Below are positions 3,862-35,424 of a stretch of 64,000 nucleotides of DNA, in pieces (positions within the stretch are counted from its first letter, which is position 1; every line of letters starts with the position of its first letter). The DNA comes from Candidatus Limnocylindrales bacterium. GTDB lineage: Bacteria; Moduliflexota; Moduliflexia; Moduliflexales; JAUQPW01. The translations under genes and the position numbers were made by a program. The notes below the pieces were generated by a model. That model worked only from the letters and a program-made list of their open reading frames with translations. It was not told the origin of the DNA and made no database searches. The stretch spans positions 132,475 through 196,474 of the forward strand of contig DATMBG010000037.1 of assembly GCA_035559535.1 (NCBI GenBank). The letters are read 5' to 3'.

Positions 3862-4605
3862 GTGAAGCCCATGATCGAAATTCAGAATGTTTATAAAACC
3901 TATAAAACCTCCCACGGTCCGGTCCGGGCTCTAATAAACGTTAGTAACTCAATTAAAAGAGGGGAAGTGGTGGTGATTATAGGTCCCAGCGGTTCGGGTA
4001 AGAGTACCCTGCTTCGCTGCTTAAATCGCCTGGAGGTCATCGATCAGGGTAAGATTATCATCGATGGGATTGTTTTGAATGATGTCGGGATAAATATTAA
4101 CAGAGTAAGGGAGGAAATTGGAATGGTTTTTCAACAGTTTAATCTTTTCCCCCACAAGACGGTTCTTCAGAACATCACGCTGGCTCAAAGGGTTGTAAGG
4201 AAGCGATCCCGAGAGGAAGCCGAACGAATTGCCCGGGAATTACTGGAAAAGGTGGGAATTCCCGAGAAGGCCTCTGCCTATCCTGCCCAACTTTCAGGAG
4301 GTCAACAGCAGCGGGTTGCCATAGCCAGGGCTTTGGCGATGCAGCCAAAAATTATGCTCTTTGATGAGCCTACCTCGGCTTTGGATCCGGAGATGATCGG
4401 CGAAGTCCTGGAAGTGATGAAAAATCTTGCCCGTGAGGGGATGACCATGGTCGTGGTGACCCACGAAATGGGATTTGCCCGCGAAGTCGCGGACCGTATC
4501 ATCTTTATGGATGAAGGACGGATCATCGAAGAGGGACCTCCGCAATTATTTTTCAAAACTCCGCAACAGGAGAGAACCAAACTTTTTTTAAGCCAGATCC
4601 TGTGA
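3862..4605 (+). CDS. Polar amino acid ABC transporter ATP-binding protein (GlnQ-like)
   Basis: Walker [13 protein letters not shown] signature [15 protein letters not shown], Walker [13 protein letters not shown] and H-loop VVVTHEM are all present. Confidence 0.85.
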
Positions 4606-4628
4606 TGGAATCGTACGCACTTTTCTCT

Positions 4629-4660
4629 TGACAAATCCGCGAGAAGTTTAGTATTCTTTA
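4629..4660 (+). promoter_or_regulatory. Candidate sigma-70 promoter for the tRNA-tilS-ftsH unit (TTGACA ... TAGTAT/GTATTC)
   Basis: A TTGACA hexamer at 4629-4634 is followed by an AT-rich -10-like hexamer about 15-17 nt downstream, roughly 100 nt upstream of the tRNA. Confidence 0.3.
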
Positions 4661-4758
4661 TACAACTCTGTCATTTTTGCCTGTAAATTTAGGAAGTTTA
4701 AACTGAGGCGAACGATTGAAATTAAGCGAAGGAACTTACCTCCCACCTATCGGAAGAC

Positions 4759-4835
4759 GGCGGTGTAGCTCAGTTGGTTAGAGCACGCGGCTCATATCCG
4801 CGGCGTCCGGGGTTCGAATCCCTGCACCGCCACCA
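4759..4835 (+). tRNA. tRNA with anticodon CAT, either an elongator tRNA-Met or tRNA-Ile2 (the lysidine substrate of TilS)
   Basis: A 77-nt cloverleaf GGCGGTG/CACCGCC acceptor stem, D-loop AGTTGGTTAGAGC, anticodon loop CT-CAT-AT, T-arm GGTTCGAATCC and an encoded CCA end. G1-C72 pairing argues against an initiator tRNA. Confidence 0.85.
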
Positions 4836-4884
4836 AATGTACGTGTGTTAATTAAACTCTTCCTCTTTCTTTCAAAAGAATAGC

Positions 4885-6582
4885 ATGCAGTTAACAGGTA
4901 CGAACAAGTCAAAATTTCTTGAAAAAATTCTCCATATTCTAAAAAAATATCCCATGCTGGAGGCGGGAGATAATCTCCTCGTAGGGGTCTCCGGGGGGAT
5001 GGATTCGGTATCACTTTTGCATGTTTTAAATCGATTAAAACCCACCTTAGGGTTTAGACTGCATGTGGCTCATTTTAATCATAATCTTCGGGGTGCAGAA
5101 TCCCTTCGAGATGCCAGGTTTGTAGAAAAGCTGGCCTGTGAATGGGGTCTTCCTTATACTTTAGGTTCCGATTCTGTCAAAGATTTTGCGCAATCCCAGA
5201 AAATGTCCCTTGAAGAAGCTGCCAGAACCCTTCGCTATCGGTTTTTTTATCGGACTGCCGAAAAGGTAGGGGCCAACAAAATTGCCACAGCCCATACGGC
5301 AGATGATCAGGCTGAAACTTTACTTCTTAGACTTTTGCAAGGGGCTGGACTGGATGGATTAAGCGGTATTCGCCCCATGTACAGCCACCTGGAAAACATC
5401 ACCCTTCCCTTGCAGGGAGGCGAGGAAGAGAAGGTTTCCTGGAGTGGACAGATTATTCGCCCTTTTCTTCAAATTACCCGGGAAGAGATCCGGTCCTTTG
5501 TTGAACAGGAAGGGCTGGAATATGTCCAGGACTCTTCTAACCTGGACAGGCGCTATCTACGGAATAAGATCCGATGGGATTTGCTGCCTTTGCTTAAACA
5601 AGAATTTAATCCAAACATTATAAAGCGATTGGCCGTCACGGCTGATTTACTTCGAGATGATCTCCATCTGCTCGAGGAATTAACCGAGGCCTGTGATCCT
5701 CAGGTTTGCAAGATGGAAAGGGAGGGAGAAATTCGGATCGAACTCCCTCGATTTGCCCGACTTCATCCGGCACTCCAAAAGCGTCTTCTACGAAGAAGTT
5801 TCGAAAAGTTGACCGGATTTATCCAGGGACTTAAGAGTACCCATGTGCAGGCTGCCGTGGAGTTGCTAAATTCTGGAGAAACCGGGAAATCTGTTCATCT
5901 GCCCGGAGGCGTAATCCTCCAACAGAGCTATGGACAGGGGATTATGCTAAAAAGACCTCCAGAAACTCAAAAATCTTCCTCTCTCCAATCTCCACTTTTA
6001 ACAGAAAATCCCGGAGGGGCCAGTTTATGGGGCAGGGAAGTCGCTTTATCCGAAGAAATCCTACAGGTTCCTGGCATACAGAACCAAAAAGGCTTGATCT
6101 TTCGCACCCAAGTTCTTAGTGTAAAAGATAGAGACGCCCAGAGTTTATTCGAAACCTTGCATAAGCAGTCCCAGGGTCTTACCTTTCCGTTTCTCTTCTT
6201 TTCTCAGGAGGGAAATAGGAAGGAGGTTGACTTTTGGAATAATAGACCGGATGGCTCTAAAAAGGTTCAGGTTCTACAACCTCAAAAAATTACCGTTTTT
6301 TTCGATTATCACAAGTTACGATTTCCTCTGAGAGTTCGAAAAAGAAAACCGGGAGATCATTTTCAGCCGTTGGGAATGAAGGGACGAAAAAAATTACAAG
6401 ATTTGCTGGTGGATCTTAAGGTTCCCAGGGAAAAGCGAGATTTAGTTCCCATCTTAGAAGACGAAGAGGGGATTATTTGGGTAACAGGTTATCGTATAGC
6501 CGAACGGGTTAAAGTAGACTCTACAACAGAAAAAATCCTGGTATGTACGGTAACGCCTTCTGAAAAGGACGACTTACCTTGA
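4885..6582 (+). CDS. tilS: tRNA(Ile)-lysidine synthetase
   Basis: N-terminal PP-loop ATPase motif LVGVSGGMDSVSLL. The C-terminal TilS_C-like region reads RVRKRKPGDHFQPLGMKGRKKLQDLLVDLKVPREKRDLVPIL..IIWVTGYRIAERV. At 565 aa it is unusually long, with an apparent central insertion. Confidence 0.8.
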   Translation: MQLTGTNKSKFLEKILHILKKYPMLEAGDNLLVGVSGGMDSVSLLHVLNRLKPTLGFRLHVAHFNHNLRGAESLRDARFVEKLACEWGLPYTLGSDSVKDFAQSQKMSLEEAARTLRYRFFYRTAEKVGANKIATAHTADDQAETLLLRLLQGAGLDGLSGIRPMYSHLENITLPLQGGEEEKVSWSGQIIRPFLQITREEIRSFVEQEGLEYVQDSSNLDRRYLRNKIRWDLLPLLKQEFNPNIIKRLAVTADLLRDDLHLLEELTEACDPQVCKMEREGEIRIELPRFARLHPALQKRLLRRSFEKLTGFIQGLKSTHVQAAVELLNSGETGKSVHLPGGVILQQSYGQGIMLKRPPETQKSSSLQSPLLTENPGGASLWGREVALSEEILQVPGIQNQKGLIFRTQVLSVKDRDAQSLFETLHKQSQGLTFPFLFFSQEGNRKEVDFWNNRPDGSKKVQVLQPQKITVFFDYHKLRFPLRVRKRKPGDHFQPLGMKGRKKLQDLLVDLKVPREKRDLVPILEDEEGIIWVTGYRIAERVKVDSTTEKILVCTVTPSEKDDLP

Positions 6583-6610
6583 AAGTATTTATGTAAAGGG
6601 GGTATAGACG

Positions 6611-8407
6611 TTGAACACTTCGTTTTATAAAAATCTTGCTTTATGGTTAGTGATTGTGGTCGTAACTATTTTACTTTTCGATTTATTTAACAGCAAACCT
6701 GAGACCTATCGCAGAATTGTTTTCAGTGAATTCATGGATCGTGTGGATGAGGGAAATATCAAAGAGGTGGTTATTTCGGGAAATTTAATCCGTGGAAGGT
6801 TAACCGATGGGTCCAAGTTTGAAACCTATGCCCTGGAGGATCCGGAACTTGTAAAAAAGTTACGCAAGCAAAAAGTCGAGATTATTGTAGAACCTGAGGA
6901 TAAAAGCTCCTGGTACCAATATTTATTAACCTGGTTACCGATGTTGGTCTTCCTGGGGGTCTGGTTTTTCTTTATGCGGCAGATGCAGATAGGAGGAAGC
7001 AAAGCTCTCTCCTTTGGTAAAAGCCGGGCCCGACTTATGAGTGATCAACAAAGAAAGGTGACATTTAAAGATGTTGCCGGAATTGATGAGGCTAAGGAAG
7101 AATTGGAGGAAATCATCGAGTTTCTCAAAGATCCTCATAAGTTTCAAAAGTTGGGGGGTAGAATCCCTAAGGGCGTTTTGTTAGTCGGACCTCCAGGAAC
7201 GGGTAAAACTTTATTAGCCCGGGCCATAGCTGGTGAAGCCGATGTTCCTTTCTTTAGTATCAGTGGGTCGGATTTTGTGGAGATGTTTGTTGGCGTGGGG
7301 GCTTCTCGGGTTCGAGACCTGTTTGAGCAGGGGAAGAAAAACGCACCCTGCATCATCTTTGTCGATGAAATTGATGCGGTGGGAAGACATCGTGGGGCCG
7401 GCCTGGGGGGTGGTCACGATGAACGCGAACAGACTTTAAACCAACTCCTGGTTGAAATGGATGGTTTCGAAACCAATGAAGGGGTTATTATCATAGCCGC
7501 TACAAATAGACCCGATGTTCTGGATCCTGCCCTCCTGCGTCCAGGACGTTTTGACCGTCAGGTGGTCGTTCCCAGCCCAGATTTGAAGGGACGTATAGAA
7601 ATTCTCAAGGTTCATACGCGAAAAGTCCCCTTGGCCAATAACGTAAATCTGGAGGTAATAGCCCGAGGAACTCCGGGTTTCTCCGGAGCCGATCTGGCCA
7701 ATCTCGTCAATGAAGCTGCCCTCCTGGCTGCCCGAAAGAATAAATCTGCTGTCGAAATGGTTGATTTTGAAGATGCCCGGGATAAAGTTCTAATGGGCTC
7801 AGAACGAAGAAGTCGGGTTATCACCGAGGAGGAAAAACTTGTTACGGCTTATCATGAAGCCGGACATGCCCTGGTTGCTAAGCTTCTACCGGAAACCGAC
7901 CCGGTCCATAAAGTCACCATTATTCCAAGAGGAATGGCTCTGGGAGTAACCCAATATCTACCGGTAGATGATCGCTATATGCGGTCTAAGACCTATTGCT
8001 TGAATGCAATCGCTTCGGCTCTGGGTGGCCGTGTGGCAGAAGAAATTATCTTCAAAGAAACAACCACCGGGGCCTCTAATGATCTGGAAAAAGCAACCGA
8101 GTTGGCCAGAAAAATGGTTTGTGAGTGGGGAATGAGCGAAAAAATGGGACCTATAGCCTTTGGTAAACGCGAGGAGCATATCTTCCTGGGTCGGGAATTT
8201 GCCCAACGTCAAAATTATAGCGAGGCAACTGCGGTTGAAATAGATAAAGAAGTACGAAGAATTGTTATGGAAAATCTGGAGCAGGCTAAAATGTTGTTAA
8301 CCAAGCATATCGATAAACTCCATGCCATTGCGAAAGCTCTCTTAGAGAAAGAGGTCTTAAATGGTGCCGAACTCGATAGTATCGTTTACGGAACCGCTAC
8401 GGTTTGA
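6611..8407 (+). CDS. ftsH: ATP-dependent zinc metalloprotease FtsH
   Basis: TTG start with an aaggggg SD. Contains two N-terminal TM segments, AAA+ Walker A GPPGTGKT, Walker [10 protein letters not shown], the SRH and the zinc protease HEAGHAL motif. tilS-ftsH synteny is conserved. Confidence 0.9.
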
Positions 8408-8534
8408 TTCGGTACTGAATAAAGAATACTGAAGGATGGGCGAGGATACCCCCGCTCCCAGGAGGGTAAGGAGGCTTACGCTTATTCAGGACTCTTTATT
8501 CAGTACCTCATACGTTGGTAGGAGGGCATGAAAA

Positions 8535-9068
8535 ATGGTTAAAGAAATAAAATTTCCACGGCGCGGAAAACTTGTCGTTGGAATTATGTCCTCCAATATA
8601 AACCTCATTGAAGATACAGAACAAAAATTAATCAAAAAATTCGGTAAAACAGATTTTGAAAGCTCTCTAATTCCCTTCAATCACACCGATTATTACACCG
8701 AAGAGATGGGAGAAGGATTACAAAAAAAATTTGTGAGTTTTTCAGAACTTATAGCCGTGGAAGATCTCCCGTATATTAAGATATTTACCAACGACCTGGA
8801 AAAACGAACTATGAAAGACGGTAAAAGACAGGTTAATATTGACCCAGGCTATCTGACTCACTCCCAATTGGTTCTGGGAACTACTAAAGCCTACGCCCAC
8901 CGAGTTTACCTCAAAGAAGGTATCTATGCAGATCTTACCTATATTTGTAAGAGAAAGAAACTTCAACCCCTGGATTGGACTTATCCTGATTTTAGAGACC
9001 CTAACGTTATCCTCTTTTTCCAGAAAGTACGGGAGCGATACTTAAAACAAATACGCGTAAGTCGATAA
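8535..9068 (+). CDS. Conserved hypothetical protein (possibly DUF4416-like)
   Basis: A 177-aa basic ORF with an ATG preceded by ggaggg. The family assignment is from memory only and is uncertain. Confidence 0.45.
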   Translation: MVKEIKFPRRGKLVVGIMSSNINLIEDTEQKLIKKFGKTDFESSLIPFNHTDYYTEEMGEGLQKKFVSFSELIAVEDLPYIKIFTNDLEKRTMKDGKRQVNIDPGYLTHSQLVLGTTKAYAHRVYLKEGIYADLTYICKRKKLQPLDWTYPDFRDPNVILFFQKVRERYLKQIRVSR

Positions 9069-9142
9069 TAAGGTTTAAAATGCCCTAAATCTCTTCTATA
9101 CGTTTGCAGTTTTTAACTGTTTATCCCCAAAGAACCCTGAAA

Positions 9143-9276
9143 AGTGTGGGAGTGTGGGGGTATGGAGGGTATGGGAATGTGGGAGTATGGGAGTAGGGGG
9201 GCGTAGGAGAGTATAATCCAATATTTCTTATCTCTACACTTCCACATTCCCATACCCTCCATACCCCCACACTCCC
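9143..9276. repeat. Hairpin-forming tandem octamer repeat element (TRTGGGAG units, then their reverse complement), copy 1
   Basis: The left arm (9143-9213) is about nine imperfect TRTGGGAG units. The right arm (9236-9276) is the reverse complement. The same architecture recurs at 21817-21994, 24909-25030 and 34367-34444. Confidence 0.8.
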
Positions 9277-9283
9277 CTTTTCT

Positions 9284-10639
9284 ATGAGAGTTGGCATTAT
9301 CGGAGGGGGTATTACCGGGTTGTTTATTGCTCATGCCCTTTCCCAAAATCACATTTCGGTTACTCTATTTGAGAAGTATGCCACTCTAGGGGGTCTCATA
9401 GGGGGTTTTAAACTGGGAAACGTCTATCTCGAGCGATATTACCACCATTTTTTCAAGAGTGATCTTCCCCTCCTCCGACTTCTCGAGCAATTGGGCCTCC
9501 AGGATAGACTATTTTGGCGGGAAGCAAAAATGGGATTTTACTATCGTGGCCCACAGGATCCGACAGGTCATCTCTATGGGTTTGGAACTCCTGTCGACCT
9601 CCTGAAATTTACTCCCTTAAGTCTGATAGATCGTTTGAGATTTGGATTTTCCATGGTCTATCTTCAACGAGTGAAAAAATGGGAAGGACTGGAAAATATT
9701 AAAGTTCAGGATTGGGCTATTCGCTACCAGGGTCGGCGAGTTTATGAGGTAATCTGGCAGCCTCTGTTAAAGGCCAAGTTTGGAGAAGATTATGAAAATA
9801 TCTCGGCTTCCTGGCTCTGGGGTCGGGTTCATGCCCGGGGAAATTCCCGAAGTAAAGGAGGTAGTAAAGAAGAACTGGGCTATATAAGGGGCGGGTTTCA
9901 GCAACTGGCTATGGCTCTTGAGATCAGTATTTTAAAAAATGGAGGCCAAATCTTTAAAAGTACCCCTGTGGATCATATAACCCGTAATGGCCGGGATCCT
10001 TTTACCTTGACAACCCGAAAGGGTTCTTTTGCCTTTGATAAAGTGGTATTTTGTGTTCCGATCCCGGACTTTTTGAAAACGCTGGGTCTGGATCATCCCT
10101 ATCCAGTGGAAAGGAAGAATCGGTCCCTGGAGTTGCCTGAGGAGTATATAAATCAATTGAAAAAAATCAAGTACCGTGCGGCCATTTGTCTGATTTTGAA
10201 ACTCAAACAACCGCTTAGCGATATTTATTGGCTTAATATCAGTGATTCAGAAGTTCCCTTTGGAGGAATCATTGAGCATACTAATTTTGTTCCCCCCTCT
10301 GAATATCAGGGATCCCATATCGTCTATATTTTTAATTACTTGAATCACCAGCATCCTTTCTTGAATATGTCTAAACTTCAACTTCTTCAAACTTACCTCC
10401 CGGCCCTTCAAAAAATCTTCCCGGACTTTAAAGAGTCCTGGATCGAGCAATCCTTTTTAACACGAGCAGATTACGCAACTCCGGTCTATACTTTTCAGTA
10501 TTCGCTGATAAGACCTCCCTTTGAGACGCCTATTAAAGATCTCTATCTGGCCAATACCAGCCAAATCTATCCTGAAGATCGAAATACAAGCAATGGAATC
10601 GCTATCGGGATGGAAGTGGTAAAGCGATTACTCTCTTGA
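9284..10639 (+). CDS. FAD/NAD(P)-binding oxidoreductase (amine oxidase / phytoene desaturase / protoporphyrinogen oxidase superfamily)
   Basis: N-terminal dinucleotide-binding fold MRVGIIGGGITGLFIAHAL..VTLFEKYATLGG. The length (451 aa) is consistent with the CrtI/HemY/HpnE-like family. Confidence 0.65.
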   Translation: MRVGIIGGGITGLFIAHALSQNHISVTLFEKYATLGGLIGGFKLGNVYLERYYHHFFKSDLPLLRLLEQLGLQDRLFWREAKMGFYYRGPQDPTGHLYGFGTPVDLLKFTPLSLIDRLRFGFSMVYLQRVKKWEGLENIKVQDWAIRYQGRRVYEVIWQPLLKAKFGEDYENISASWLWGRVHARGNSRSKGGSKEELGYIRGGFQQLAMALEISILKNGGQIFKSTPVDHITRNGRDPFTLTTRKGSFAFDKVVFCVPIPDFLKTLGLDHPYPVERKNRSLELPEEYINQLKKIKYRAAICLILKLKQPLSDIYWLNISDSEVPFGGIIEHTNFVPPSEYQGSHIVYIFNYLNHQHPFLNMSKLQLLQTYLPALQKIFPDFKESWIEQSFLTRADYATPVYTFQYSLIRPPFETPIKDLYLANTSQIYPEDRNTSNGIAIGMEVVKRLLS

Positions 10640-10657
10640 GTAAAAGAGTTAACCCTT

Positions 10658-12385
10658 ATGAACTCAAATACTTACCAGAAAGCAAAACCTATCCTTTGTA
10701 GGATTATTGATTCGGTAATTATCTTTTACTTTCTTCTTTTATGGGTATTTTATTATACCGGTGGCTTCGTCTATGAATTTTTCGGTATTACCCTTAAGCT
10801 CACCCATATCAAAAACCCTTTGATTATTATAACAACTTTATGGTTGATCAAGCACCTTCTGCTTTTTGATTCCTTGAGATCTGTCCTGCGCTTTTTTCAT
10901 AAGGCCTTTCTTTTTGCAACTTTCCTTCTTTCCCTTCACTTAGCGAATTATATAGGGTATGGGTATTATCTCAATGCAACCTTAGCCAGGTTCGATGCCT
11001 ATAAAAAATTTGCCGATACTCCCTCTGAGGGAATAAAATCCGATAAAGGCTGGAATGTGATTCTGATCAGTATCGATACCCTTCGGGCAGACCACCTTCA
11101 TAGCTATGGATATGAAAGGAATACCTCTCCTCATATCGATAAACTGGCTTCTGAAGGGGTTTTGTTCACAAACCACATTGCCGCCGCCCCGGCTACTCTC
11201 ATCTCCCATGCTTCGATGTTTACTTCCTTAAATCCTTCTGTTCATAAAGCCGAAGCACGAACCCGGACTGTTTTAGATGGTAGATTTATTACTCTGGCTG
11301 AGTTCTTAAAAAAAGAAGGATTTATAACAACTGCCTTTACCGGGGGTGGACAGATGAATAAGGCGTTTAGACTGGATCAGGGTTTTGACAGGTATGATGA
11401 TGAGAACGATGGAAACGGACTTCCCGATGCAATAGATAAGGTACTCAACTGGCTAAAGCGACATAAAAACCAGCGTTTTTTTCTGTTCTTCCATACCTAT
11501 CAGGTCCATGCTCCTTATAGTCCTCCTCCACCCTATGATGAACTTTTCTACCCTGAATATAGAGGAAGTTTAGGAAAAAAAATAGAAGGTGAGATCCTGA
11601 CTCAAATTAATGAAAAAGTCTTACCCATCGAGCAGGAGGATCTAAGACATATTATAGCCCTTTATGACGGTGAAATTGCGTTTACAGACGCCCAATTAGG
11701 GCGCTTATTTGACGAGCTTAAAGCCCTGGGTCTCTGGGAAAAGACCCTCATGGTTCTTACTTCTGACCATGGAGAAGAATTTAACGAGCATGGCATTGTA
11801 GGACACCACGGTCATACTCTGTATGAGGAACTCTTAAAAATTCCGCTTATTATTAAATTTCCAGATTCATCTTTTCGGGGAGTTATTGTTCACCAACAAT
11901 CCAGGGGAATTGATATTTTTCCTACTATTGTTGATATACTGGGATTTCGAAAACCCGAACCGATCCAGGGTATCTCTTTACTTCCTCTGATAAAAAATCC
12001 TCAGATGAAACTGGCTCTTCCCGCTCTAAGTGAGAAGGAAGGCCATGAATTAAAATCCCTCCGAATAAACGGCTACAAACTCCATGTAGGCTCTAGAAAA
12101 AGCAAATCGGTAACCTTTGAAACCCCCTGGACAAAAATGTTCTTTTATCGAATCCCTGAATATCATTCAAGATTAAAAGAACAGGCCTTCTATGATTTAA
12201 AAACAGATCCAGGAGAAACCCGGAATCTTCATAAATCCCAGGTCCGGTTGGTCAGGGTTTTTGAGAGAAAAATAAAACAGCTAGAAGAAGAAAACTCTCT
12301 TTTGGCCGGTTCCTTTAAACCCGGTAAAGCCCAGGAAGATCAGGAGCTTGTTAAACAACTTAAAGGATTAGGCTATCTTCAATAG
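10658..12385 (+). CDS. Membrane-anchored sulfatase-like (alkaline phosphatase superfamily) hydrolase/transferase
   Basis: About 110 N-terminal residues with several hydrophobic helices, followed by a sulfatase-fold domain (ILISIDTLRADHL, SDHGEEFNEHGIVGHHG). The canonical C/S-x-P-x-R formylglycine motif is not obvious, so this is more likely a transferase-like member. Confidence 0.6.
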   Translation: MNSNTYQKAKPILCRIIDSVIIFYFLLLWVFYYTGGFVYEFFGITLKLTHIKNPLIIITTLWLIKHLLLFDSLRSVLRFFHKAFLFATFLLSLHLANYIGYGYYLNATLARFDAYKKFADTPSEGIKSDKGWNVILISIDTLRADHLHSYGYERNTSPHIDKLASEGVLFTNHIAAAPATLISHASMFTSLNPSVHKAEARTRTVLDGRFITLAEFLKKEGFITTAFTGGGQMNKAFRLDQGFDRYDDENDGNGLPDAIDKVLNWLKRHKNQRFFLFFHTYQVHAPYSPPPPYDELFYPEYRGSLGKKIEGEILTQINEKVLPIEQEDLRHIIALYDGEIAFTDAQLGRLFDELKALGLWEKTLMVLTSDHGEEFNEHGIVGHHGHTLYEELLKIPLIIKFPDSSFRGVIVHQQSRGIDIFPTIVDILGFRKPEPIQGISLLPLIKNPQMKLALPALSEKEGHELKSLRINGYKLHVGSRKSKSVTFETPWTKMFFYRIPEYHSRLKEQAFYDLKTDPGETRNLHKSQVRLVRVFERKIKQLEEENSLLAGSFKPGKAQEDQELVKQLKGLGYLQ

Positions 12386-21816: not shown

Positions 21817-21994
21817 AGTGTGGGCGTGTGAAGGTATGAGAGTATGGGAGTGTGGAAGTAGGGAAGTATGGGAGTATGGAAGTGTGGGGGTGTGGGAGTG
21901 TGGACGTGGGGAGTAAATTCTCCCCTACTCCCCTACTCTCATACTCCTATACTCCCATACTTCCACACTCTCATAACTTCCACACTCCCATACT
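21817..21994. repeat. Hairpin-forming tandem octamer repeat element, copy 2 (the longest)
   Basis: About 12 TRTGGGAG-like units (21817-21913), the loop AAATTC, then the reverse-complement CTCCCAYA units (21920-21994). Confidence 0.8.
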
Positions 21995-24908: not shown

Positions 24909-25030
24909 AGAGAGTATAGGAATGTGGGGGTATGGGAGTATAGGAGTGTGGAAGTATGGGAGTGTGGGAGTATGGAGGTGAATTCTCCCTTACTTCCATA
25001 CTTCCATACCCCCACACTCCCATACCATCA
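24909..25030. repeat. Hairpin-forming tandem octamer repeat element, copy 3
   Basis: Eight TRTGGGAG-like units, the loop GAATTC, then reverse-complement units. It exactly fills the tsaB-hemB intergenic space. Confidence 0.8.
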
Positions 25031-26140: not shown

Positions 26141-26740
26141 ATGGACAGAGCTATTCAAAGGATTGTACTGGTTATGCAACAATATATAAAAATCTTAGAA
26201 CACTGGAAAGCTGACATGACTAAAGGTTACAAGGGCGTTATTCTGGAGTGGATTAAAACCGGAGTTATTGCTATTATTCTTTCCTTCATTATCAAGGCTA
26301 CCGTTGTAGAAGCCTACCTGGTACCCAGTAGTTCCATGGTACCGACCATCCAAATTGGAGATCGTATTCTGGGAAATAAGTTTATTTATTGGTTTACAGA
26401 CCCCAAACCCGGAGACATCGTTGTTTTTCGTCCTCCTCCAGAGGCCCACACCAATGTTCCACGATATGTTAAAAGAGTGGTAGCCGTAGAAGGAGATCTT
26501 GTGGAAATAAAAAATGGCATGTTATATGTTAACGGAAAACCTCGAAAGGAAGATTATATCAAGGAACCTCCAGAATACACCTTTGGACCTAAGCGGGTTC
26601 CAAAGGGCCACATATTCGTCTTAGGAGACAATCGGAATAACAGCCATGACGGTCATGTTTGGGAATTCCTTCCTAAAGAAAATCTACTGGCCAAGGTATT
26701 TTTCCGATTCTGGCCACCGAGCCGGATAGGAGTGCTATAA
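26141..26740 (+). CDS. lepB: Signal peptidase I
   Basis: S26 motifs SSSMVPTIQIGDRIL (Ser nucleophile), the KRVVAVEGD Lys box and GDNRNNSHDG are present. Confidence 0.8.
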   Translation: MDRAIQRIVLVMQQYIKILEHWKADMTKGYKGVILEWIKTGVIAIILSFIIKATVVEAYLVPSSSMVPTIQIGDRILGNKFIYWFTDPKPGDIVVFRPPPEAHTNVPRYVKRVVAVEGDLVEIKNGMLYVNGKPRKEDYIKEPPEYTFGPKRVPKGHIFVLGDNRNNSHDGHVWEFLPKENLLAKVFFRFWPPSRIGVL

Positions 26741-27028
26741 ATAAGGGCATAGGGGCGATCCCAGAGATCGCCCTCACCAGATCTCACTATACTCTTCCAC
26801 CGAATTTAAGGTGCAGGACTGACCTGTCTTAAATTTCTCTGGCAAGGCGAAACCTCCAGATAGGTATTCCCAGACTCTATCTGGGAATAAAGTTAGGAAC
26901 AGAAATAGTAGAGAACCTTACAAAAGTAAAGTCATTAAGAGAATTTATTCCTCACCCGAACTTACCTGAGTTTCCGATCTGCTTACCTTCATCTTGACAT
27001 CCCCTTTTCCCTTAGAGTATATAAAATT

Positions 27029-28711
27029 ATGCAATCTTTTTTGATTCAAAGGTTTAAGGGTTTTTTTCCACAAACCTTTACGTTTCTCAAAAATTTGCAG
27101 GCCCATAATACCCGAGAATGGTTTGCAGCCCACAGGGAAGAGTTTTATCGCTACCTGGATCAACCCCTTCGAGCTCTTCTTAGGGATTTGGGTCCCTTTA
27201 TCTCCCAAACCTTTCCCGCCTTCAAATGGGAAACCACTCCCAAAACGGGGAAGTGCCTTTCCCGGATTCATATCCAGGGTAAGTCAGGAGTAAACTTATA
27301 CTATACCCATTACTGGGGAGCATTTTATCGTCAAAGTCAAACCAAACAGCGTGATGCCCAGCTTTTTATCAGCCTTCATCCTGAAAAGGTTCGGATAGGA
27401 TTTCATCTGGGATCTGAAGCTAGGCTGGTATGGATGCGGTTTCAAAAAAATATTAAAAAGAATCCCCATTTTTTTCAATCCCTGCTGAGGGAATTAGTTT
27501 TAAAGGAATCCTATATCTTCGAAACCCTTAAGAAATCCAAGGAGGTTCCCCATCCACTTCCTGAAGTACACGATTTAGAAGCCTTAAAAACCTGGGCTCA
27601 GGCCCGAGAAATGACAATAGCCCGGGAGTTAGATCTGCAAGAACCCCGCCTCTATCAACCTGAGCTGGTTCAGGTAGTAGAGGAGATTTTTAAAGATCTT
27701 TATCCCTTTTATGTGTTTGTTACAACTCCGGACCCCATTTCTAAGCTAAATGGCCGAATACGAGTGGCTGACCGACCTGCTTTATCTTTGACCAAAGCCC
27801 TCCGAGGTCTGGTTAAAGAAGAACCCACGCCCTATCCTTCCACGACGTCTTTACCGGCTTATACCTTTCAGCAACTTCTGGAAGAAACTTACCTGGAAGA
27901 ATCCTTCCTTAGAAGTATAGAAAACTTATTAAGCTCTGGGAAAAAGCAGGCGATTTTTACAGGGCCTCCTGGAACCGGAAAGACCTATGTGGCTCAAAAG
28001 TTTGCCAGATATCTACAAGGATCTGAGGGTCGGGTGCAACTTATTCAATTTCACCCTACTTATGGGTATGAAGAATTTATGGAAGGAATCCGACCTCAAC
28101 TGGTTCAAACCCGGGAGGGTTTCCACGAGGTAACTTATGAAGTAGAAGCGGGTGTTTTTAAAGCGTTTTGCGAGGAAGCTCGGGGGAGAAAGGGAAATTA
28201 CGTTTTTATTATCGATGAAATCAATCGTGGAAATCTTTCTCGAGTTTTTGGAGAATTACTCTACCTGCTGGAATATCGGGATCAAGAGATCATTCTCCCC
28301 TACTCACGCCAGCGCTTCTCCATTCCAGAGAATGTTTATATCTTGGGGACTATGAACACAGCCGACCGTTCCATTGCTTTGGTCGACTTTGCATTACGTC
28401 GACGGTTCCATTTTGTTTCCTTCGAAGCCGACCAGGCCGTTTTAAAACGCTGGCTTGAAAAGAATTGTCCTTCCATGATGGAATCGGCATTAGAGATTTT
28501 TACCCTCCTGGATCGAGCCATTGAAGATAAGCACTTCAAGATCGGGTTTAGCTATTTTATGGATCCGGAATTGGATCAGGACAAACTTCGACTTCTCTGG
28601 AACTATACCCTTCGACCTTATCTGGACGAATACTGGTTTAACGATCCCTCGCGGGTTTCTAAACTTGAGGAGAAGGTCAGGAAGATCCTCTCCAAAGAAA
28701 AGAGCTCGTAA
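27029..28711 (+). CDS. DUF2461 (TIGR02453-like) domain fused to a McrB-family AAA+ GTPase domain
   Basis: The N-terminal ~230 aa begin FKGFFPQTFTFLKNLQAHNTREWFAAHREEF, the DUF2461 signature. The C-terminal half has Walker A GPPGTGKT, the McrB-specific motifs QFHPTYGYEEFMEGIRP and MNTADRSIALVDFALRRRF, and Walker B FIIDEINRGN. There is a TTGACA-17-GTATAT promoter ending about 5 nt before the ATG, which suggests a leaderless mRNA. Confidence 0.8.
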   Translation: MQSFLIQRFKGFFPQTFTFLKNLQAHNTREWFAAHREEFYRYLDQPLRALLRDLGPFISQTFPAFKWETTPKTGKCLSRIHIQGKSGVNLYYTHYWGAFYRQSQTKQRDAQLFISLHPEKVRIGFHLGSEARLVWMRFQKNIKKNPHFFQSLLRELVLKESYIFETLKKSKEVPHPLPEVHDLEALKTWAQAREMTIARELDLQEPRLYQPELVQVVEEIFKDLYPFYVFVTTPDPISKLNGRIRVADRPALSLTKALRGLVKEEPTPYPSTTSLPAYTFQQLLEETYLEESFLRSIENLLSSGKKQAIFTGPPGTGKTYVAQKFARYLQGSEGRVQLIQFHPTYGYEEFMEGIRPQLVQTREGFHEVTYEVEAGVFKAFCEEARGRKGNYVFIIDEINRGNLSRVFGELLYLLEYRDQEIILPYSRQRFSIPENVYILGTMNTADRSIALVDFALRRRFHFVSFEADQAVLKRWLEKNCPSMMESALEIFTLLDRAIEDKHFKIGFSYFMDPELDQDKLRLLWNYTLRPYLDEYWFNDPSRVSKLEEKVRKILSKEKSS

Positions 28712-28933: not shown

Positions 28934-29398
28934 TTACCCTTCTACTTCCACAATCATCTCGATTTCTACGGGTATATTTCGAGGTAAAGAACCCATTCCA
29001 ACAGCCGAACGTGCATGCCTGCCCCGATCTCCAAAGATAGCCACCAGGAGATCTGAACAACCGTTTATGACTTCAGGATGATTGGTAAAAGACGGATCGG
29101 CATTGACCATACCCAACACTTTGACAATCCGTTTAACTTTGTTCAGATCTCCGATTTCGGCTTTAAGGGAAGATAGCAGGTTGATGGCCACCAGCCGTGC
29201 CGCTTCTTTTCCCTGCTCCAAATCTATCTCACGTCCCACCTTACCGATTACCATGCCCCCTTCCGGCTTTCTCGGTCCATGTCCGGCAAGAAAGATCAGA
29301 TTTCCGGTACGTACTGCATGGACATAATTTGCCAGAGGGCGGTCCGGGGTATGAAGGGTTACTCCTAATTCCTTGAGCCGCTGCTCAACATCGACCAT
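28934..29398 (-). CDS. RidA/YjgF/TdcF family reactive-intermediate deaminase
   Basis: A 154-aa protein with the conserved FLAGHGPRKPEGGMV and ARLVAINLL region and a C-terminal PVEIE. The length and motifs fit the chorismate-mutase-like RidA fold. Confidence 0.8.
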   Translation of the reverse strand: MVDVEQRLKELGVTLHTPDRPLANYVHAVRTGNLIFLAGHGPRKPEGGMVIGKVGREIDLEQGKEAARLVAINLLSSLKAEIGDLNKVKRIVKVLGMVNADPSFTNHPEVINGCSDLLVAIFGDRGRHARSAVGMGSLPRNIPVEIEMIVEVEG

Positions 29399-31457: not shown

Positions 31458-32798
31458 TTAATATCCCATGTCTTCTGCTAACGCGTCATTCAAGCTGGTA
31501 TTGAACCGATCCAGGTGTTCTCCCGTCATAGCCGTCGAGATACAGCCCAACCCTCTGGAAGCCAGGAAGATCCCTCGATTCAGGAGAGAGAAGAAAAGTT
31601 GATTTCGGCTTTTCATATCTCCTCGTTGGGCCGATCGATAATCCAGGATTTCTTCTGTTGAGAAGTGGATATTAAAGAGAGAGCCAACCCCGGTCACCTG
31701 AGCCTTAACACCCCGTTTTTTGAAGGTCTCGGTGATCATAGTTCGGAGTTTTTCTCCCATCTGGTTAATTCGATCCATGGCTTCAGGGGTCAACGCCTCC
31801 ATAGCGGCCAATCCGGCGGCCATACCTACGGGAGTTCCATTAAAGGTACCGCTGTGGGGAATTCTGGGAGTTCCATTTCTTGGATCCATCAGGGCCATAA
31901 TGTCTTCGCATCCACCAAAAGCTGCAACTGGATAACCCCCGCTGATAATTTTTCCTAAAGTCGTCAGATCGGGGCGAATGCCATACATTTCTTGAGCTCC
32001 ACCCAAACGGACCCGGAAGGAGATGATCTCGTCGAAAATCAATAAGATTCCATATTGTCGGGTAATCTCTCGAAGGAACTGCAGGTATTCTTTCCTGGCC
32101 GGGATTATACCCCCTGCTCCCAGGATGGGTTCGATAAGCACACAGGCAAGCTCATGTTTATGTTTCATAATCAGACGCTCGCTGTTTTTCTGATCATTGA
32201 AGGGAAGGATAACCATCTGCCCGGGGATGGCCGGTGAGATTCCTACAGCATCCGGGATAACAGCCGGAGATTCCACAGGACCGACCTGATCTAAAGGAGG
32301 ATGCATACTCATAAGGGCATAATCGTAAGAGCCATGAAACCCTCCTTCAATCTTGGCGATCTTGTGTCTTCCTGTAAATCCTTGAGCCAGTCGAAGGGCA
32401 AACATAATGGCCTCTGAACCGGAGGAAGCAAAGCGGATCCGTTCGATGGAAGGAACCCGCGAGATGAGAAGTTCGGCAAGTTTGATCTCCTGTTCCGTTG
32501 GAGCACCAAAGCACGACCCTTTTTGGATTTGTCTGGCAACGGCTTCTGTGATTTTTGGATGATGGTATCCATGGATCAGGGAGGTATAATTACCCAGGAA
32601 ATCTACACGCTCGTTTCCATCCACATCGTAAAGCATACAACCCTCCCCACGTTCCATATACACAGGAAAAGGCTGGAAATAAGTACTGGTTCGTGTAATA
32701 CCTCCTGCAAGGGAATTTTGGGCCCTTTGGTAGAGCTGCATCGACTTTTTATTCTTCTCTATATACCGTTGGACAACTTTTTCTATGGGAATGTCCAT
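31458..32798 (-). CDS. Class III (omega) aminotransferase, glutamate-1-semialdehyde aminomutase-like
   Basis: PLP fold-type I class III motifs are present: SGSEAIMFALRLA and DEIISFRVRLGGAQEMYGI, with the lysine region GKIISGG. Confidence 0.8.
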   Translation of the reverse strand: MDIPIEKVVQRYIEKNKKSMQLYQRAQNSLAGGITRTSTYFQPFPVYMERGEGCMLYDVDGNERVDFLGNYTSLIHGYHHPKITEAVARQIQKGSCFGAPTEQEIKLAELLISRVPSIERIRFASSGSEAIMFALRLAQGFTGRHKIAKIEGGFHGSYDYALMSMHPPLDQVGPVESPAVIPDAVGISPAIPGQMVILPFNDQKNSERLIMKHKHELACVLIEPILGAGGIIPARKEYLQFLREITRQYGILLIFDEIISFRVRLGGAQEMYGIRPDLTTLGKIISGGYPVAAFGGCEDIMALMDPRNGTPRIPHSGTFNGTPVGMAAGLAAMEALTPEAMDRINQMGEKLRTMITETFKKRGVKAQVTGVGSLFNIHFSTEEILDYRSAQRGDMKSRNQLFFSLLNRGIFLASRGLGCISTAMTGEHLDRFNTSLNDALAEDMGY

Positions 32799-34366: not shown

Positions 34367-34444
34367 TTGTATGGGAGTGGGAGAGTATGGGGTATAGGAA
34401 GATTTACATCCTTACTCCCCCACTCCCATACTCCCATACCCCCC
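34367..34444. repeat. Hairpin-forming tandem octamer repeat element, copy 4 (short), inside the liv operon between livM and livG
   Basis: TGTATGGGAGTGGGAGAGTATGGGGTATAGGAAG, the loop ATTTACAT, then the reverse complement. Confidence 0.8.
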
Positions 34445-34446
34445 TT

Positions 34447-35424
34447 CTACACGCCTATCCTTCTACCCCCTCGCGCTATTCTACTCCACAGAGTTCTCAA
34501 GAATCCCATCACTCCACCGGGTAAGAAAATGACCAGGAAAACAAGGGTTACACCGAAGTAAATTTCCCAGAAATCGGTATGGGAGATGATATAATCTTTT
34601 AACAGAAGAAACAGCCAGGATCCCAAGATAGGACCAAGAAATACTTCACTTCCGCCCAGAAGGGTCATTAAAACAGGCTCTGCAGATTTCGTCCAGCCCA
34701 CCACATCCGGGGATACAGTACTGGCGAAGGGTGCATAAAGCGCCCCGGCCAATCCAGCAAAGCAACCTGCAATGGAAAAGGCGATCAATTGAAATTTTTT
34801 CACTTCAAGACCTGAGAAATTTACCCTTTCTAAATTCTCTCGAATTCCCCGTAATATATATCCCAGAGGAGAATGTACTATTTTCCAAAGCAGAAAGGTA
34901 GAAAGGATAAAAAAGACCAGGACAAAATAATAATAATACAGAGGAGAAGCCAAATCCAGGGAGATCAATCCAAAAAAGCTAACAGTGGGTTTAGGAACCC
35001 CCACCAGGCCATTATCTCCACCAGTCACATCGTACCATTTAAAAGCGATGGCATAAACCATCTGACCAAAGGCGAGGGTCAGCATGGAAAAGTAGATCCC
35101 GGTCAATCGTACGCAGAAAAATCCTATAGCGAATGCCGAGAGGGTTGCAAAAATAACCCCCACTAAAATGGCCAGCCAGAAGGAAGAAGAAATCTTCATC
35201 AACATAAGTCCACAGACATAAGCGCCGATACCAAAGTAAGCAGCCTGTCCAAAGGAGAGGAGACCTGTATAGCCGAACAGCAGATTAAAGCTGGTGGCTA
35301 AAAGGGCCATGATGAGGATTTCAATATAAAGAAGAAGTTTAAATGCGGAAACCCAGTAAGGCAAATAAATCCACACACCTATGAATAGAAGCCAGCCGAT
35401 CAGGGGGAAAGAGGAAGATTTCAA
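34447..35424 (-). CDS. livM: Branched-chain amino acid ABC transporter permease
   Basis: A polytopic membrane protein of 325 aa with LivM-like conserved segments (LLFGYTGLLSFGQAAYFGIGAY). It sits between livH and livG. Confidence 0.8.
   Translation of the reverse strand: MKSSSFPLIGWLLFIGVWIYLPYWVSAFKLLLYIEILIMALLATSFNLLFGYTGLLSFGQAAYFGIGAYVCGLMLMKISSSFWLAILVGVIFATLSAFAIGFFCVRLTGIYFSMLTLAFGQMVYAIAFKWYDVTGGDNGLVGVPKPTVSFFGLISLDLASPLYYYYFVLVFFILSTFLLWKIVHSPLGYILRGIRENLERVNFSGLEVKKFQLIAFSIAGCFAGLAGALYAPFASTVSPDVVGWTKSAEPVLMTLLGGSEVFLGPILGSWLFLLLKDYIISHTDFWEIYFGVTLVFLVIFLPGGVMGFLRTLWSRIARGGRRIGV

Follow-up and report, generated by a model that had tools for sequence, protein, structure and literature searches.

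What does a restriction motor do when it has long been kept under selection among housekeeping genes without its nuclease? The question arises from one gene in the stretch of DNA analyzed here, a 64-kb window that is part of a 237-kb contig. A sequence-only reading of the window had described this gene as a fusion of an N-terminal DUF2461 domain to an McrB-family GTPase, lying between lepB and a convergent ridA and having no McrC partner on either flank. The open reading frame was found exactly as described, the peptides quoted from it occur in its translation, and the two neighbors are those that had been named:

26141..26740, forward strand: signal peptidase S26 (lepB), upstream flank
27029..28711, forward strand: coding sequence for a DUF2461-linker-McrB GTPase of 560 aa; the identical protein is deposited as HWP48134.1, from a Candidatus Limnocylindrales bacterium MAG, under the name "DUF2461 family protein"
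28934..29398, reverse strand: RidA, downstream flank, convergent

In the 560-aa protein a flexible linker joins a full-length DUF2461 domain (aa 15-230) to a complete AAA+ motor of the McrB type (aa ~285-549). Its parts are as follows:

27071..27718, forward strand: DUF2461 domain (aa 15-230), YktB/DUF1054-like alpha+beta fold
27734..27880, forward strand: flexible linker (aa 236-284), from pLDDT, dN/dS and alignment to EcMcrB
27881..28675, forward strand: McrB-type AAA+ GTPase domain plus lid (aa 285-549), from NCBIfam McrB, PDB alignments and McrB_lid on homologs
27962..27985, forward strand: Walker A GPPGTGKT (aa 312-319), from alignment to EcMcrB/TgMcrB
28214..28228, forward strand: Walker B DEINR (aa 396-400), from the sequence and alignment to EcMcrB
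28352..28369, forward strand: McrB signature loop MNTADR (aa 442-447), with the NxxD form found in canonical GTP-specific McrBs, from the sequence and alignment
28397..28408, forward strand: sensor II/arginine finger RRRF (aa 457-460), from the sequence and alignment

All of the McrB motifs claimed for the C-terminal half are present, and alignment to EcMcrB and TgMcrB indicated that the catalytic motifs, whose roles have been described (Walker A/B, signature loop, RRRF; PMC7680126), are intact. Walker A is followed by Y320, which aligns with the guanine-stacking residue of EcMcrB and TgMcrB; the role of an aromatic residue at this point is also described in PMC7680126. Pfam placed AAA_5 at aa 309-460 (E=2e-18), and the NCBIfam McrB model PRK11331 matched aa 275-549 over profile positions 165-454 of 459 (E=8e-49). 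The latter score, 166.6 bits, lies under the 637-bit equivalog cut-off, which applies to the whole E. coli-type protein including DUF3578; this is expected, since the N-domain here is DUF2461. The AAA+ domain aligned end to end with EcMcrB (PDB 6hz4/6ut6; aa 277-549, E=8e-50) and also matched TgMcrB (E=4e-43), and close homologs of the protein carry precomputed matches to PF28529 (McrB_lid). The motifs predict a McrB-type, GTP-specific AAA+ motor that would form hexamers.

The closest point of reference is McrB of the E. coli K-12 Type IV system McrBC (6hz4, 6ut6, 7vsr), which has the same Walker A, Walker B, MNTADR, RRRF and lid, and likewise carries an N-terminal accessory domain on a flexible linker. 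The segment PAYTFQQLLEETYLEE (aa 276-291), which spans the junction of linker and AAA+ domain, aligned with the guanine-reading loop of EcMcrB (166-181), in which D176 and F178 have been assigned a role in reading the base (PMC7680126). The two proteins differ in the N-domain, which is DUF3578/ADAM in E. coli and DUF2461 in the window protein, and in that the window gene has no adjacent mcrC. The guanine-stacking His of TgMcrB, H501, is replaced by Phe507. Membership in the CoCoNuT (CnuB/CnuC) group was considered and set aside: the motif is NTAD, thus NxxD and not NxD, a distinction drawn among McrBs in PMC11090510, and the protein has no coiled-coil insert and the gene no nuclease genes alongside.

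The N-terminal assignment held up in profile searches. Pfam PF09365 (DUF2461) matched aa 15-230 over its full length (1-208 of 208) with E=3e-22 and 79.9 bits against a cut-off of 22.8, while NCBIfam TIGR02453 matched aa 14-231 at 64.6 bits, under a trusted cut-off of 105.4 that describes the stand-alone subfamily. The domain bears the signature of a fused DUF2461 subfamily (E68, Y91, W96, A98-F99-Y100-R101, K106, D109, Q111, L112). Within it, Q111, D109, Y100 and E68 set the fused subfamily apart from stand-alone members; Q111 was unchanging across 179 DUF2461 fusions, and all of the fusion-specific residues, Q111, D109, Y100, E68 and F17, are kept in the window protein.

The domain superposes on the YktB/DUF1054 (UPF0637) structural-genomics structures 2a8e and 3mqz, which share only 9-16% identity with it; those proteins are stand-alone, of about 205-210 aa, and lack an NTPase fusion. 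The earlier comparison with EVE and YTH readers found no support. The same YktB/DUF1054 structures are the published nearest structural neighbors of DNA-bound McrB-N. Kinship of DUF2461 with the classical McrB N-domain is at the level of fold only: the 5mC-binding domain of E. coli McrB (3ssc/3ssd) has about 160 aa compared with about 220 aa for DUF2461, and hhalign of a DUF2461 profile (231 sequences) against EcMcrB-N (aa 1-161; DUF3578/ADAM) gave a probability of 0.2%, with no sequence or profile similarity. On that value, remote homology of DUF2461 with DUF3578 was dropped.

The linker has pLDDT below 50 at aa 249-267, and among the McrC-less orthologs described below it has a dN/dS of 0.27-1.0 and an amino-acid identity of 25-64%. 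With its DUF2461 domain tethered by a disordered, fast-evolving linker, the protein repeats the layout in which E. coli McrB carries its DNA reader.

The fusion itself turned out to be widespread. Most of the best 120 database matches carry DUF2461, McrB_lid and AAA_5 together, and 179 of the 230 DUF2461 domains that we collected belong to proteins 450 aa or longer; clustered at 50% identity, the DUF2461 family that we retrieved numbered about 1000 representatives. The best match to the window protein in a scan of reference genomes was only 40% identical. We found no published description of DUF2461-McrB; none of the four papers in which DUF2461 appeared concerns McrB, and DUF2461 is absent from the text and supplements of a 2024 McrBC census. 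The suggestion that the fusion is undescribed therefore stands as regards the literature, but the fusion is not rare: it is a large unpublished branch of McrB, annotated automatically as "DUF2461 family protein" or "McrB".

Most of this branch has its nuclease. Of the 18 distinct contexts that we examined, 11 have a McrC gene that abuts the 3' end of the DUF2461-bearing gene or overlaps it (L004, L010, L011, L012, L015, L020, L027, L046, L067, L090, L102), often within defense islands. Three such systems illustrate the arrangement: Leptolyngbya boryana NIES-2135 plasmid2 (BAY59737.1/BAY59738.1), an Acidobacteria MAG (GCA_017303955.1, L004), and the P0007 locus (L090). They share the core and the DUF2461 signature with the window protein, and differ from it in having McrC at the 3' end, often an extra N-terminal module of ~400 aa (DUF8426), and a location in defense islands or on a megaplasmid. 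P0007 is the nearest relative that is not an orphan (45% identity), and its locus adjoins a Type I R-M system; the next relatives are located in DISARM-like/KAP islands. In a separate case (L097), a 433-aa unannotated protein upstream of a McrB lacking the DUF was considered as a possible split-off DUF2461/DUF8426 module; it had no Pfam matches and no similarity to P0007, and the idea was rejected.

The window locus encodes no such partner, that is, no McrC (DUF2357 plus PD-(D/E)xK) in the same operon. Translated in six frames, the 64-kb window yields 1510 stop-to-stop segments that are 25 aa or longer. We searched all of these with filters off, and the best hits were at E=3.3 for an HMM trained on over 70 McrCs from the DUF2461-McrB branch and at E=0.64 for E. 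coli McrC. The absence of McrC from the flanks thus extends to the entire window, fragments included. PADLOC reported nothing in the window beyond generic REase_II-type AAA matches. The possibility that a frameshifted McrC persists just downstream was likewise rejected: the spacer 3' of the gene is only 222 nt, too short to contain a decayed McrC, and the six-frame search there was empty.

The orphan state is shared. The window gene belongs to a narrow McrC-less clade of 68-95% identity found in at least four genomic contexts (window/L093, L091, L001, L008) and monophyletic in a rough neighbor-joining tree of the AAA+ domain. McrC was not found within 7-10 kb of the orthologs at L001, L008, L091 and L093, where flanks of up to 10 kb were inspected. 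The gene sits beside tsaB-hemB-lepB in this clade. Its GC and GC3 match those of neighboring genes, and its divergence is near that of the flanking tsaB/hemB/lepB (90% identity compared with 90-96% in one pair, 95% compared with 96-99% in another). The gene is vertically inherited beside housekeeping genes; given this composition, the conserved synteny and the nature of the neighbors, recent horizontal transfer and a defense-island location were both rejected. A second McrC-less case is a planctomycete DUF2461-McrB clade in housekeeping contexts (L014, L100). A 417-aa ORF downstream of the L014 gene was examined as a divergent McrC and discarded, as it gave no HMM, hhalign or Pfam signal and looks secreted. 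For the family, the survey of public genomes showed a common fusion with a McrC partner in most contexts, one of the outcomes that the sequence-only reading had itself named as refuting its view; the orphan state is nevertheless real and conserved for the window clade and also for the planctomycete clade. What is special to the window is this narrow monophyletic McrC-less clade, rather than the DUF2461-McrB fusion.

Since relatives normally have McrC and the window gene does not, the gene might be a remnant of McrBC from which McrC was deleted and which is becoming a pseudogene. This explanation is largely refuted, and we regard it as very improbable. The reading frame is intact in all five of the orphan-clade lineages examined, and in pairs with unsaturated synonymous sites dN/dS was 0.09-0.11 for DUF2461 and about 0.09 for the AAA+ domain; both domains are under purifying selection. 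The clade is moreover so deep that synonymous sites have become saturated, the layout of the promoter has been conserved (see below), and McrC fragments were not found in the window.

We favor, at roughly even odds (a probability of about 0.5), the reading that the window gene is a solo descendant of the DUF2461-type McrBC branch, domesticated as a GTP-dependent nucleic-acid-binding motor without a nuclease of its own. The lineage retains the motor alone among housekeeping genes, and so the motor probably works without its own nuclease. DUF2461 would serve as the module that recognizes a nucleic-acid target, because it is the only N-terminal domain in short McrC-linked relatives and because its fold family is the nearest to the 5mC-flipping N-domain of McrB. 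With GTP bound, the protein may assemble into a hexamer able to bind DNA with a particular feature and perhaps to translocate on it. Rather than serving as a restriction endonuclease, the solo protein would use GTP to bind or remodel foreign or modified DNA, or to act as a roadblock on it, working at the basal GTPase rate. McrB hexamers without McrC hold the full machinery for basal GTP hydrolysis (PMC7680126), but E. coli McrB without McrC stimulation is slow, at 0.5-1 GTP turnovers per min (PMC7680126); such a rate would be weak for a motor and would count against this solo-motor reading.

DUF2461 could instead bind a protein or a ligand, in which case the whole would be a GTP-driven AAA+ protein that remodels or senses a target other than DNA. 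We consider this decidedly unlikely. The 537-aa L004 protein has DUF2461 as the sole N-terminal domain of the McrB in a canonical McrBC operon, a place in which the studied homologs all have a DNA-binding domain. The published structural neighborhood of DNA-bound McrB-N, given above, and the defense-island setting of the relatives also point toward nucleic-acid targets.

A further alternative is that the protein continues to serve as the B subunit of an active restriction enzyme, using in trans a McrC or another PD-(D/E)xK or HNH nuclease encoded elsewhere, possibly shared with a second McrBC. The catalytic residues are all retained, and those by which TgMcrB anchors McrC are kept or conservatively replaced (R447, D500, F537, N538), so that the protein still looks able to dock McrC. 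The McrC-contact residues double as inter-subunit contacts (PMC7680126), however, and because the same residues form subunit interfaces their conservation is uninformative between the explanations. A precedent has been proposed in Bacillus anthracis, where the McrB homolog McrB3P (BA_2283) is encoded apart from any mcrC gene and a McrBP-McrC operon elsewhere in the genome is the proposed source of McrC (PMC4722110); McrB3P differs from the window protein in its N-domain, and it is not known to belong to a conserved orphan clade or to share synteny with housekeeping genes. Linkage can also be loose, as at L101, where McrC lies 4 kb downstream of DUF2461-McrB with other genes between, and our inspection covered part of each genome (64 kb of the 237-kb contig here, flanks of up to 10 kb in relatives). 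Yet McrB and McrC are nearly always adjacent and often overlapping, with McrC no more than 500 bp downstream at 75 of 80 McrB loci in reference genomes. The orphan state, moreover, recurs across the clade's contexts with McrC absent within 7-35 kb, and the neighborhood is one of housekeeping rather than defense. On balance we hold an enzyme completed in trans to be somewhat unlikely.

The uncharacterized DUF2461 gains a concrete context, since it forms the N-terminal part of an extensive McrBC branch missing from published censuses, and the structural tie linking DUF2461, YktB/DUF1054 and the 5mC-reading domain of E. coli McrB provides a testable hypothesis for three families. The McrC-linked form has an entry point in a culturable organism, namely the pair on Leptolyngbya boryana NIES-2135 plasmid2. 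More speculatively, DUF2461, DUF1054/YktB and the McrB N-domain may make up one superfamily of nucleic-acid readers, possibly base-flipping, and, jointly with this, the solo DUF2461-McrB clades of this Chloroflexota-labelled lineage and of planctomycetes may be domesticated nuclease-free GTP motors with a chromosomal role outside defense, such as the detection or removal of DNA modifications or lesions. We think it unlikely that this combination holds in full; if it did, it would provide the first functional assignment for two widespread DUF families and the first McrB motor recruited out of restriction.

Finally, the gene appears to have its own start of transcription, at a promoter with two putative elements:

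26994..26999, forward strand: -35-like hexamer TTGACA, read from the sequence, its position conserved in orthologs
27018..27023, forward strand: -10-like hexamer TATATA, 18-nt spacer from TTGACA, ending 5 nt before the ATG

The promoter had been called a consensus one ending about 5 nt before the ATG. Its placement stands and its -35 is perfect, but the -10 is weak by E. coli rules, agreeing with TATAAT at 4 of 6 positions and lacking the T at position 6, and it is this lack that accounts for the omission of the TTGACA/TATATA pair from a sigma-70 consensus promoter scan. The argument for a promoter therefore rests on conservation of TTGACA, which all five orthologs (window, L093, L091, L001, L008) have 29-30 nt upstream of the ATG despite their differing surroundings; two of the five have saturated synonymous sites. 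We judged correct the earlier view of independent, probably leaderless transcription. A -10 ending 5 nt before the ATG leaves no space for a Shine-Dalgarno leader, and with TTGACA at a fixed distance the transcript is plausibly leaderless.

The gene examined here encodes a 560-aa protein identical to HWP48134.1 ('DUF2461 family protein'), from a 237-kb contig of a Candidatus Limnocylindrales bacterium MAG. The features of the locus are:

26141-26740, + strand, signal peptidase S26 gene (lepB), upstream flank, spacer of 288 nt
26994-26999, + strand, -35-like TTGACA, 18 nt before the TATATA
27018-27023, + strand, -10-like TATATA, 5 nt before the ATG
27029-28711, + strand, DUF2461-McrB coding sequence, 560 aa
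28934-29398, - strand, RidA gene, convergent, downstream flank, spacer of 222 nt

Pfam assigned aa 15-230 to DUF2461 (PF09365; E=3e-22; score of 79.9 bits, cut-off 22.8; all 208 profile positions matched) and aa 309-460 to AAA_5. Among the NCBIfam models, that of E. coli McrB matched aa 275-549 (profile positions 165-454 of 459, E=8e-49) below its equivalog cut-off, and TIGR02453 matched aa 14-231 at 64.6 bits, short of its cut-off of 105.4. Among solved structures, the AAA+ domain of E. coli McrB (E=8e-50) and T. gammatolerans McrB (E=4e-43) both aligned end to end with aa 277-549. The set of catalytic motifs is complete, comprising Walker A GPPGTGKT, Walker B DEINR, the signature loop MNTADR, and a sensor II/arginine finger RRRF. 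The NxxD motif is of the type found in canonical GTP-specific McrBs, whereas CoCoNuT systems have NxD (PMC11090510). The loop just before the AAA+ domain that reads the guanine base (PMC7680126) also aligns, with ETY for DLF. Every sequence criterion tested places the protein in the McrB GTPase family, and the earlier sequence-only reading of a 560-aa ORF with a DUF2461 N-domain and McrB motifs was confirmed. We hold this identity, and the evolutionary origin described below, with high confidence.

The same reading had placed no McrC, the nuclease partner of McrB, on either flank, and this was borne out across the whole 64-kb window. The flanking genes are lepB and ridA, and the spacers are too short to leave room for a decayed McrC. 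Over 70 McrC ORFs of the same McrB branch went into an McrC HMM, which recovered even truncated McrCs in the fetched loci at E 3e-30 or better. Six-frame translation of the window gave 1510 stop-to-stop segments of 25 aa or longer; searched against all of them with HMMER filters off, this HMM gave a best E of 3.3 and E. coli McrC a best E of 0.64, both noise. The frameshifted downstream remnant that had been envisaged was found neither here nor in the 222-nt spacer. As the defining partner is absent, the window locus is not a McrBC system.

A search of approximately 5.8 billion proteins returned 8000 matches, and most of the best 120 of these combine PF09365 with PF28529 (McrB_lid) and AAA_5. 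Two size classes are present among the best 120, of ~520-570 aa and ~900-960 aa. In the long forms an extra N-terminal module of ~400 aa, PF28530 (DUF8426), precedes DUF2461, and because this module is confined to them the conserved core is DUF2461-linker-McrB. The PF28530 assignment, for P0007 (aa 1-400; L090 6001-7230) and other long forms, comes from precomputed annotation, with no local Pfam match; the module carries a 'YWKIAPGENAWNW...GFIAIGW' segment. The N-domain alone, searched against 1.84 billion cluster representatives, gave 982 matches at E<=1e-3 and 149 at E<=1e-10. The nearest were almost all long fusion proteins, and stand-alone DUF2461 proteins (~220-250 aa) surfaced at 25-30% identity. 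DUF2461 was called on database proteins with our own HMM at E<=1e-3; of the 230 domains extracted at E<=1e-5, 179 belong to proteins 450 aa or longer. Stand-alone DUF2461-like ORFs were also seen in short unannotated enterobacterial 'phage' records (OR845309.1, OR851046.1, MT840007.1) and a Salmonella contig, at 23-27% identity over ~90% of the N-domain.

In 75 of 80 McrB loci from reference genomes, a collection without the window's species, an McrC ORF lies no more than 500 bp downstream and often overlaps the McrB stop codon. An acidobacterial protein of 537 aa (locus L004) matches the window protein in its short architecture and has an adjacent McrC. DUF2461-bearing McrBs with adjacent McrC also occur at loci L010, L011, L012, L015, L020, L027, L046, and L067, and at L090, where P0007 and its McrC lie beside a Type I R-M system. 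On plasmid2 of the cultured cyanobacterium Leptolyngbya boryana NIES-2135, BAY59737.1 ('ATPase', 869 aa) adjoins BAY59738.1 ('McrBC ... component-like'). We found no published description of the DUF2461-McrB architecture and nothing tying DUF2461 to McrB in the literature retrieved, nor any paper using the term 'TIGR02453'; the term DUF2461 is absent from the 2024 McrBC census and its supplements. As far as the literature searched shows, the architecture is abundant in databases yet unpublished. The sequence-only reading had proposed an undescribed fusion, perhaps a rare new sensor-motor arrangement, and had named a common, McrC-partnered fusion as the outcome counting against it. The fusion does appear undescribed, no paper having been found; it is not rare, and McrC normally stands alongside, so that for the family (most of the best 120 matches; McrC-linked loci such as L004 and L090) the fusion is indeed common and partnered.

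The absence of McrC is therefore a property to be placed within this family. In a rough neighbor-joining tree of AAA+ domains, P0001-P0006, homologs with 68-95% identity to the window protein, form a tight monophyletic group. The sister of the orphan clade is P0007, with McrC, and the next group out comprises DUF-less McrBs of ~450 aa, with McrC, in DISARM-like, KAP NTPase, and REase-ARP islands. The orphan clade collapses to a single representative at 50% clustering. No McrC was found within the available 7-10 kb flanks in its four contexts (window/L093, L091, L001, L008). The relatives at 90-95% identity have the upstream order cyclase-MFS-tsaB-hemB-lepB in common and differ on the downstream side.

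For unsaturated pairs (Nei-Gojobori), dN/dS was 0.09-0.11 in DUF2461, ~0.09 in the AAA+ domain, and 0.27-1.0 in the linker; synonymous sites were saturated between the window gene and L001 or L008. The window gene has a GC of 44% and GC3 of 43%, like neighboring genes. Its product is 90% identical to that of L091 and 95% to that of L093, for which flanking housekeeping proteins are 90-96% and 96-99% identical, respectively. Recent import was considered and rejected on this match in composition and a divergence near that of the flanking proteins. Together with the selection on both domains, the same observations speak against a decaying remnant, which we regard as essentially excluded, and point to a functional two-domain protein that has long been inherited vertically. 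Within the flanks available, the orphan state of the window's clade is genuine and conserved. The 95% ortholog (L093 7740-9422, JGI 3300039489, and L094) appears in the JGI gene calls cut short to 473 aa, without DUF2461, while in L093 the full 560-aa frame is intact. A 109-aa antisense ORF in the JGI annotation overlies its true N-terminus; the counterpart in the window, 26945-27271 (-), is probably spurious.

No solved structure of DUF2461 was detectable by sequence. An AlphaFold2 model of aa 1-275 from a 52-sequence alignment was confident (mean pLDDT 88, pTM 0.84), with only the linker at aa 249-267 disordered. Foldseek against the PDB matched the DUF2461 model to 2a8e (B. subtilis YktB, E=1.8e-6) and 3mqz (DUF1054, E=0.01). 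T3SS-chaperone structures ranked higher, which favors DUF2461 binding a protein or ligand and not nucleic acid; we consider this unlikely. The closest structural neighbors of McrB-N are 2a8e (z=6.2), 2ffg, and '3mgz' (z=5.5), whose DNA binding the McrB-N structure paper left open (PMC3424535); '3mgz' is presumably 3mqz. These shared YktB/DUF1054 neighbors make the DUF2461 fold family the nearest to the classical McrB reader, which occupies the same place in the polypeptide. The likeness is structural only, a 231-sequence DUF2461 profile aligning with EcMcrB aa 1-161 at an hhalign probability of 0.2%. DUF2461 is probably the target-recognition module, since short McrC-linked systems such as L004 have no other domain at the N-terminus.

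Fused and stand-alone DUF2461s have a common core of F12, F19, N27, W31, P46, Y91, W96, F99, G124, and P226. Q111 is invariant in the 179 fusions, whereas only 24% of stand-alones have Ala there; D109 occurs in 84% of fusions versus 18% of stand-alones, and Y100, E68, and F17 are likewise specific to the McrB-fused subfamily. This fusion-specific signature is borne by a beta-hairpin at aa 95-116, and the window protein keeps every one of these residues. The DUF2461-McrB architecture provides DUF2461, and by extension YktB/DUF1054, with a concrete, testable nucleic-acid context.

The full machinery for basal GTP hydrolysis lies within McrB hexamers, McrC serving only as stimulator (30-40-fold in E. 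coli) and nuclease (PMC7680126). In this lineage the motor may have been domesticated to work with no nuclease of its own, and the solo protein would then depend on GTP to bind or remodel particular DNA or to act as a roadblock on it. We give this reading as a whole an even chance (roughly 0.5); it rests on a complete McrB GTPase, a complete and selected DUF2461 on a flexible tether, the lack of a nearby McrC, and housekeeping synteny. As the main alternative, the window protein might use a nuclease encoded elsewhere, an arrangement already proposed for B. anthracis McrB3P (PMC4722110). The McrC-anchoring residues of TgMcrB map to R447, D500, F537, and N538, all retained or conservatively replaced, but these double as subunit contacts and their retention is not decisive; we view such a partnership as possible though somewhat doubtful. 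With domestication or otherwise, a solo clade conserved among housekeeping genes adds a further variation to the unpublished DUF2461-McrB architecture, and raises the question of the role of McrB motors without McrC.

Expression of the window gene was also considered. The sequence-only reading had given it its own consensus promoter and a leaderless start. 'Consensus' overstates the case, since a sigma-70 consensus scan, which accepts only -10 boxes with T at position 6, did not list the site with its weak -10. No Shine-Dalgarno sequence lies between the TATATA and the ATG. A (C)TTGACA is found 29-30 nt 5' of the ATG in five of five orthologs, including L001 and L008 with otherwise unrelated upstream regions; this is the geometry expected if the transcript begins on the A of the ATG or beside it, which makes leaderless, independent expression plausible.

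The orphan state is not unique to the window's clade. A second, independent solo clade is made up of planctomycete long-form DUF2461-McrBs of 925-992 aa without McrC (L014 8651-11629, L100 7001-9778), which have uvrB, infA, and genes for secreted proteins as neighbors. At L101, of the planctomycete group, McrC lies 4 kb downstream, past a DCD-domain gene and two unannotated ones, perhaps because genes were inserted into a McrBC operon and expanded it. The same-strand order there (4051-12354, GCA_973374125.1) is the long-form DUF2461-McrB P0081, a 100-aa ORF, the DCD-domain protein (PF22769), unannotated proteins of 526 and 483 aa, and McrC (PF10117). Chloroflexota McrBs of 551-563 aa without McrC occur in Promineifilaceae (L032 9131-10822) and Ardenticatenaceae (L043 9233-10888); their N-terminal half is not DUF2461 and their AAA+ part is 45-48% identical. 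About 1 kb downstream of the L032 McrB is a signal peptidase S26 gene, which recalls the lepB neighbor in the window.

Elsewhere in the window, intergenic elements at ~9142-9282, 21832-21970, 24912-25027, and 34367-34449 consist of a tandem 8-bp unit, GAGTATGG (~3-9 copies), followed by a reverse-complement array. Such arrays would fold into long imperfect hairpins and may represent a REP/MITE-like or terminator element specific to the lineage; they also account for spurious 'MGVWKYGSMEVW...' entries in the ORF list. A class-III aminotransferase gene (31458-32798, -) between a TPP-enzyme gene and livF is missing at the same position in L093, the 95% relative, indicating a recent local indel. 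A single tRNA gene (4759-4832, +) is the window's only Rfam match at the gathering threshold.
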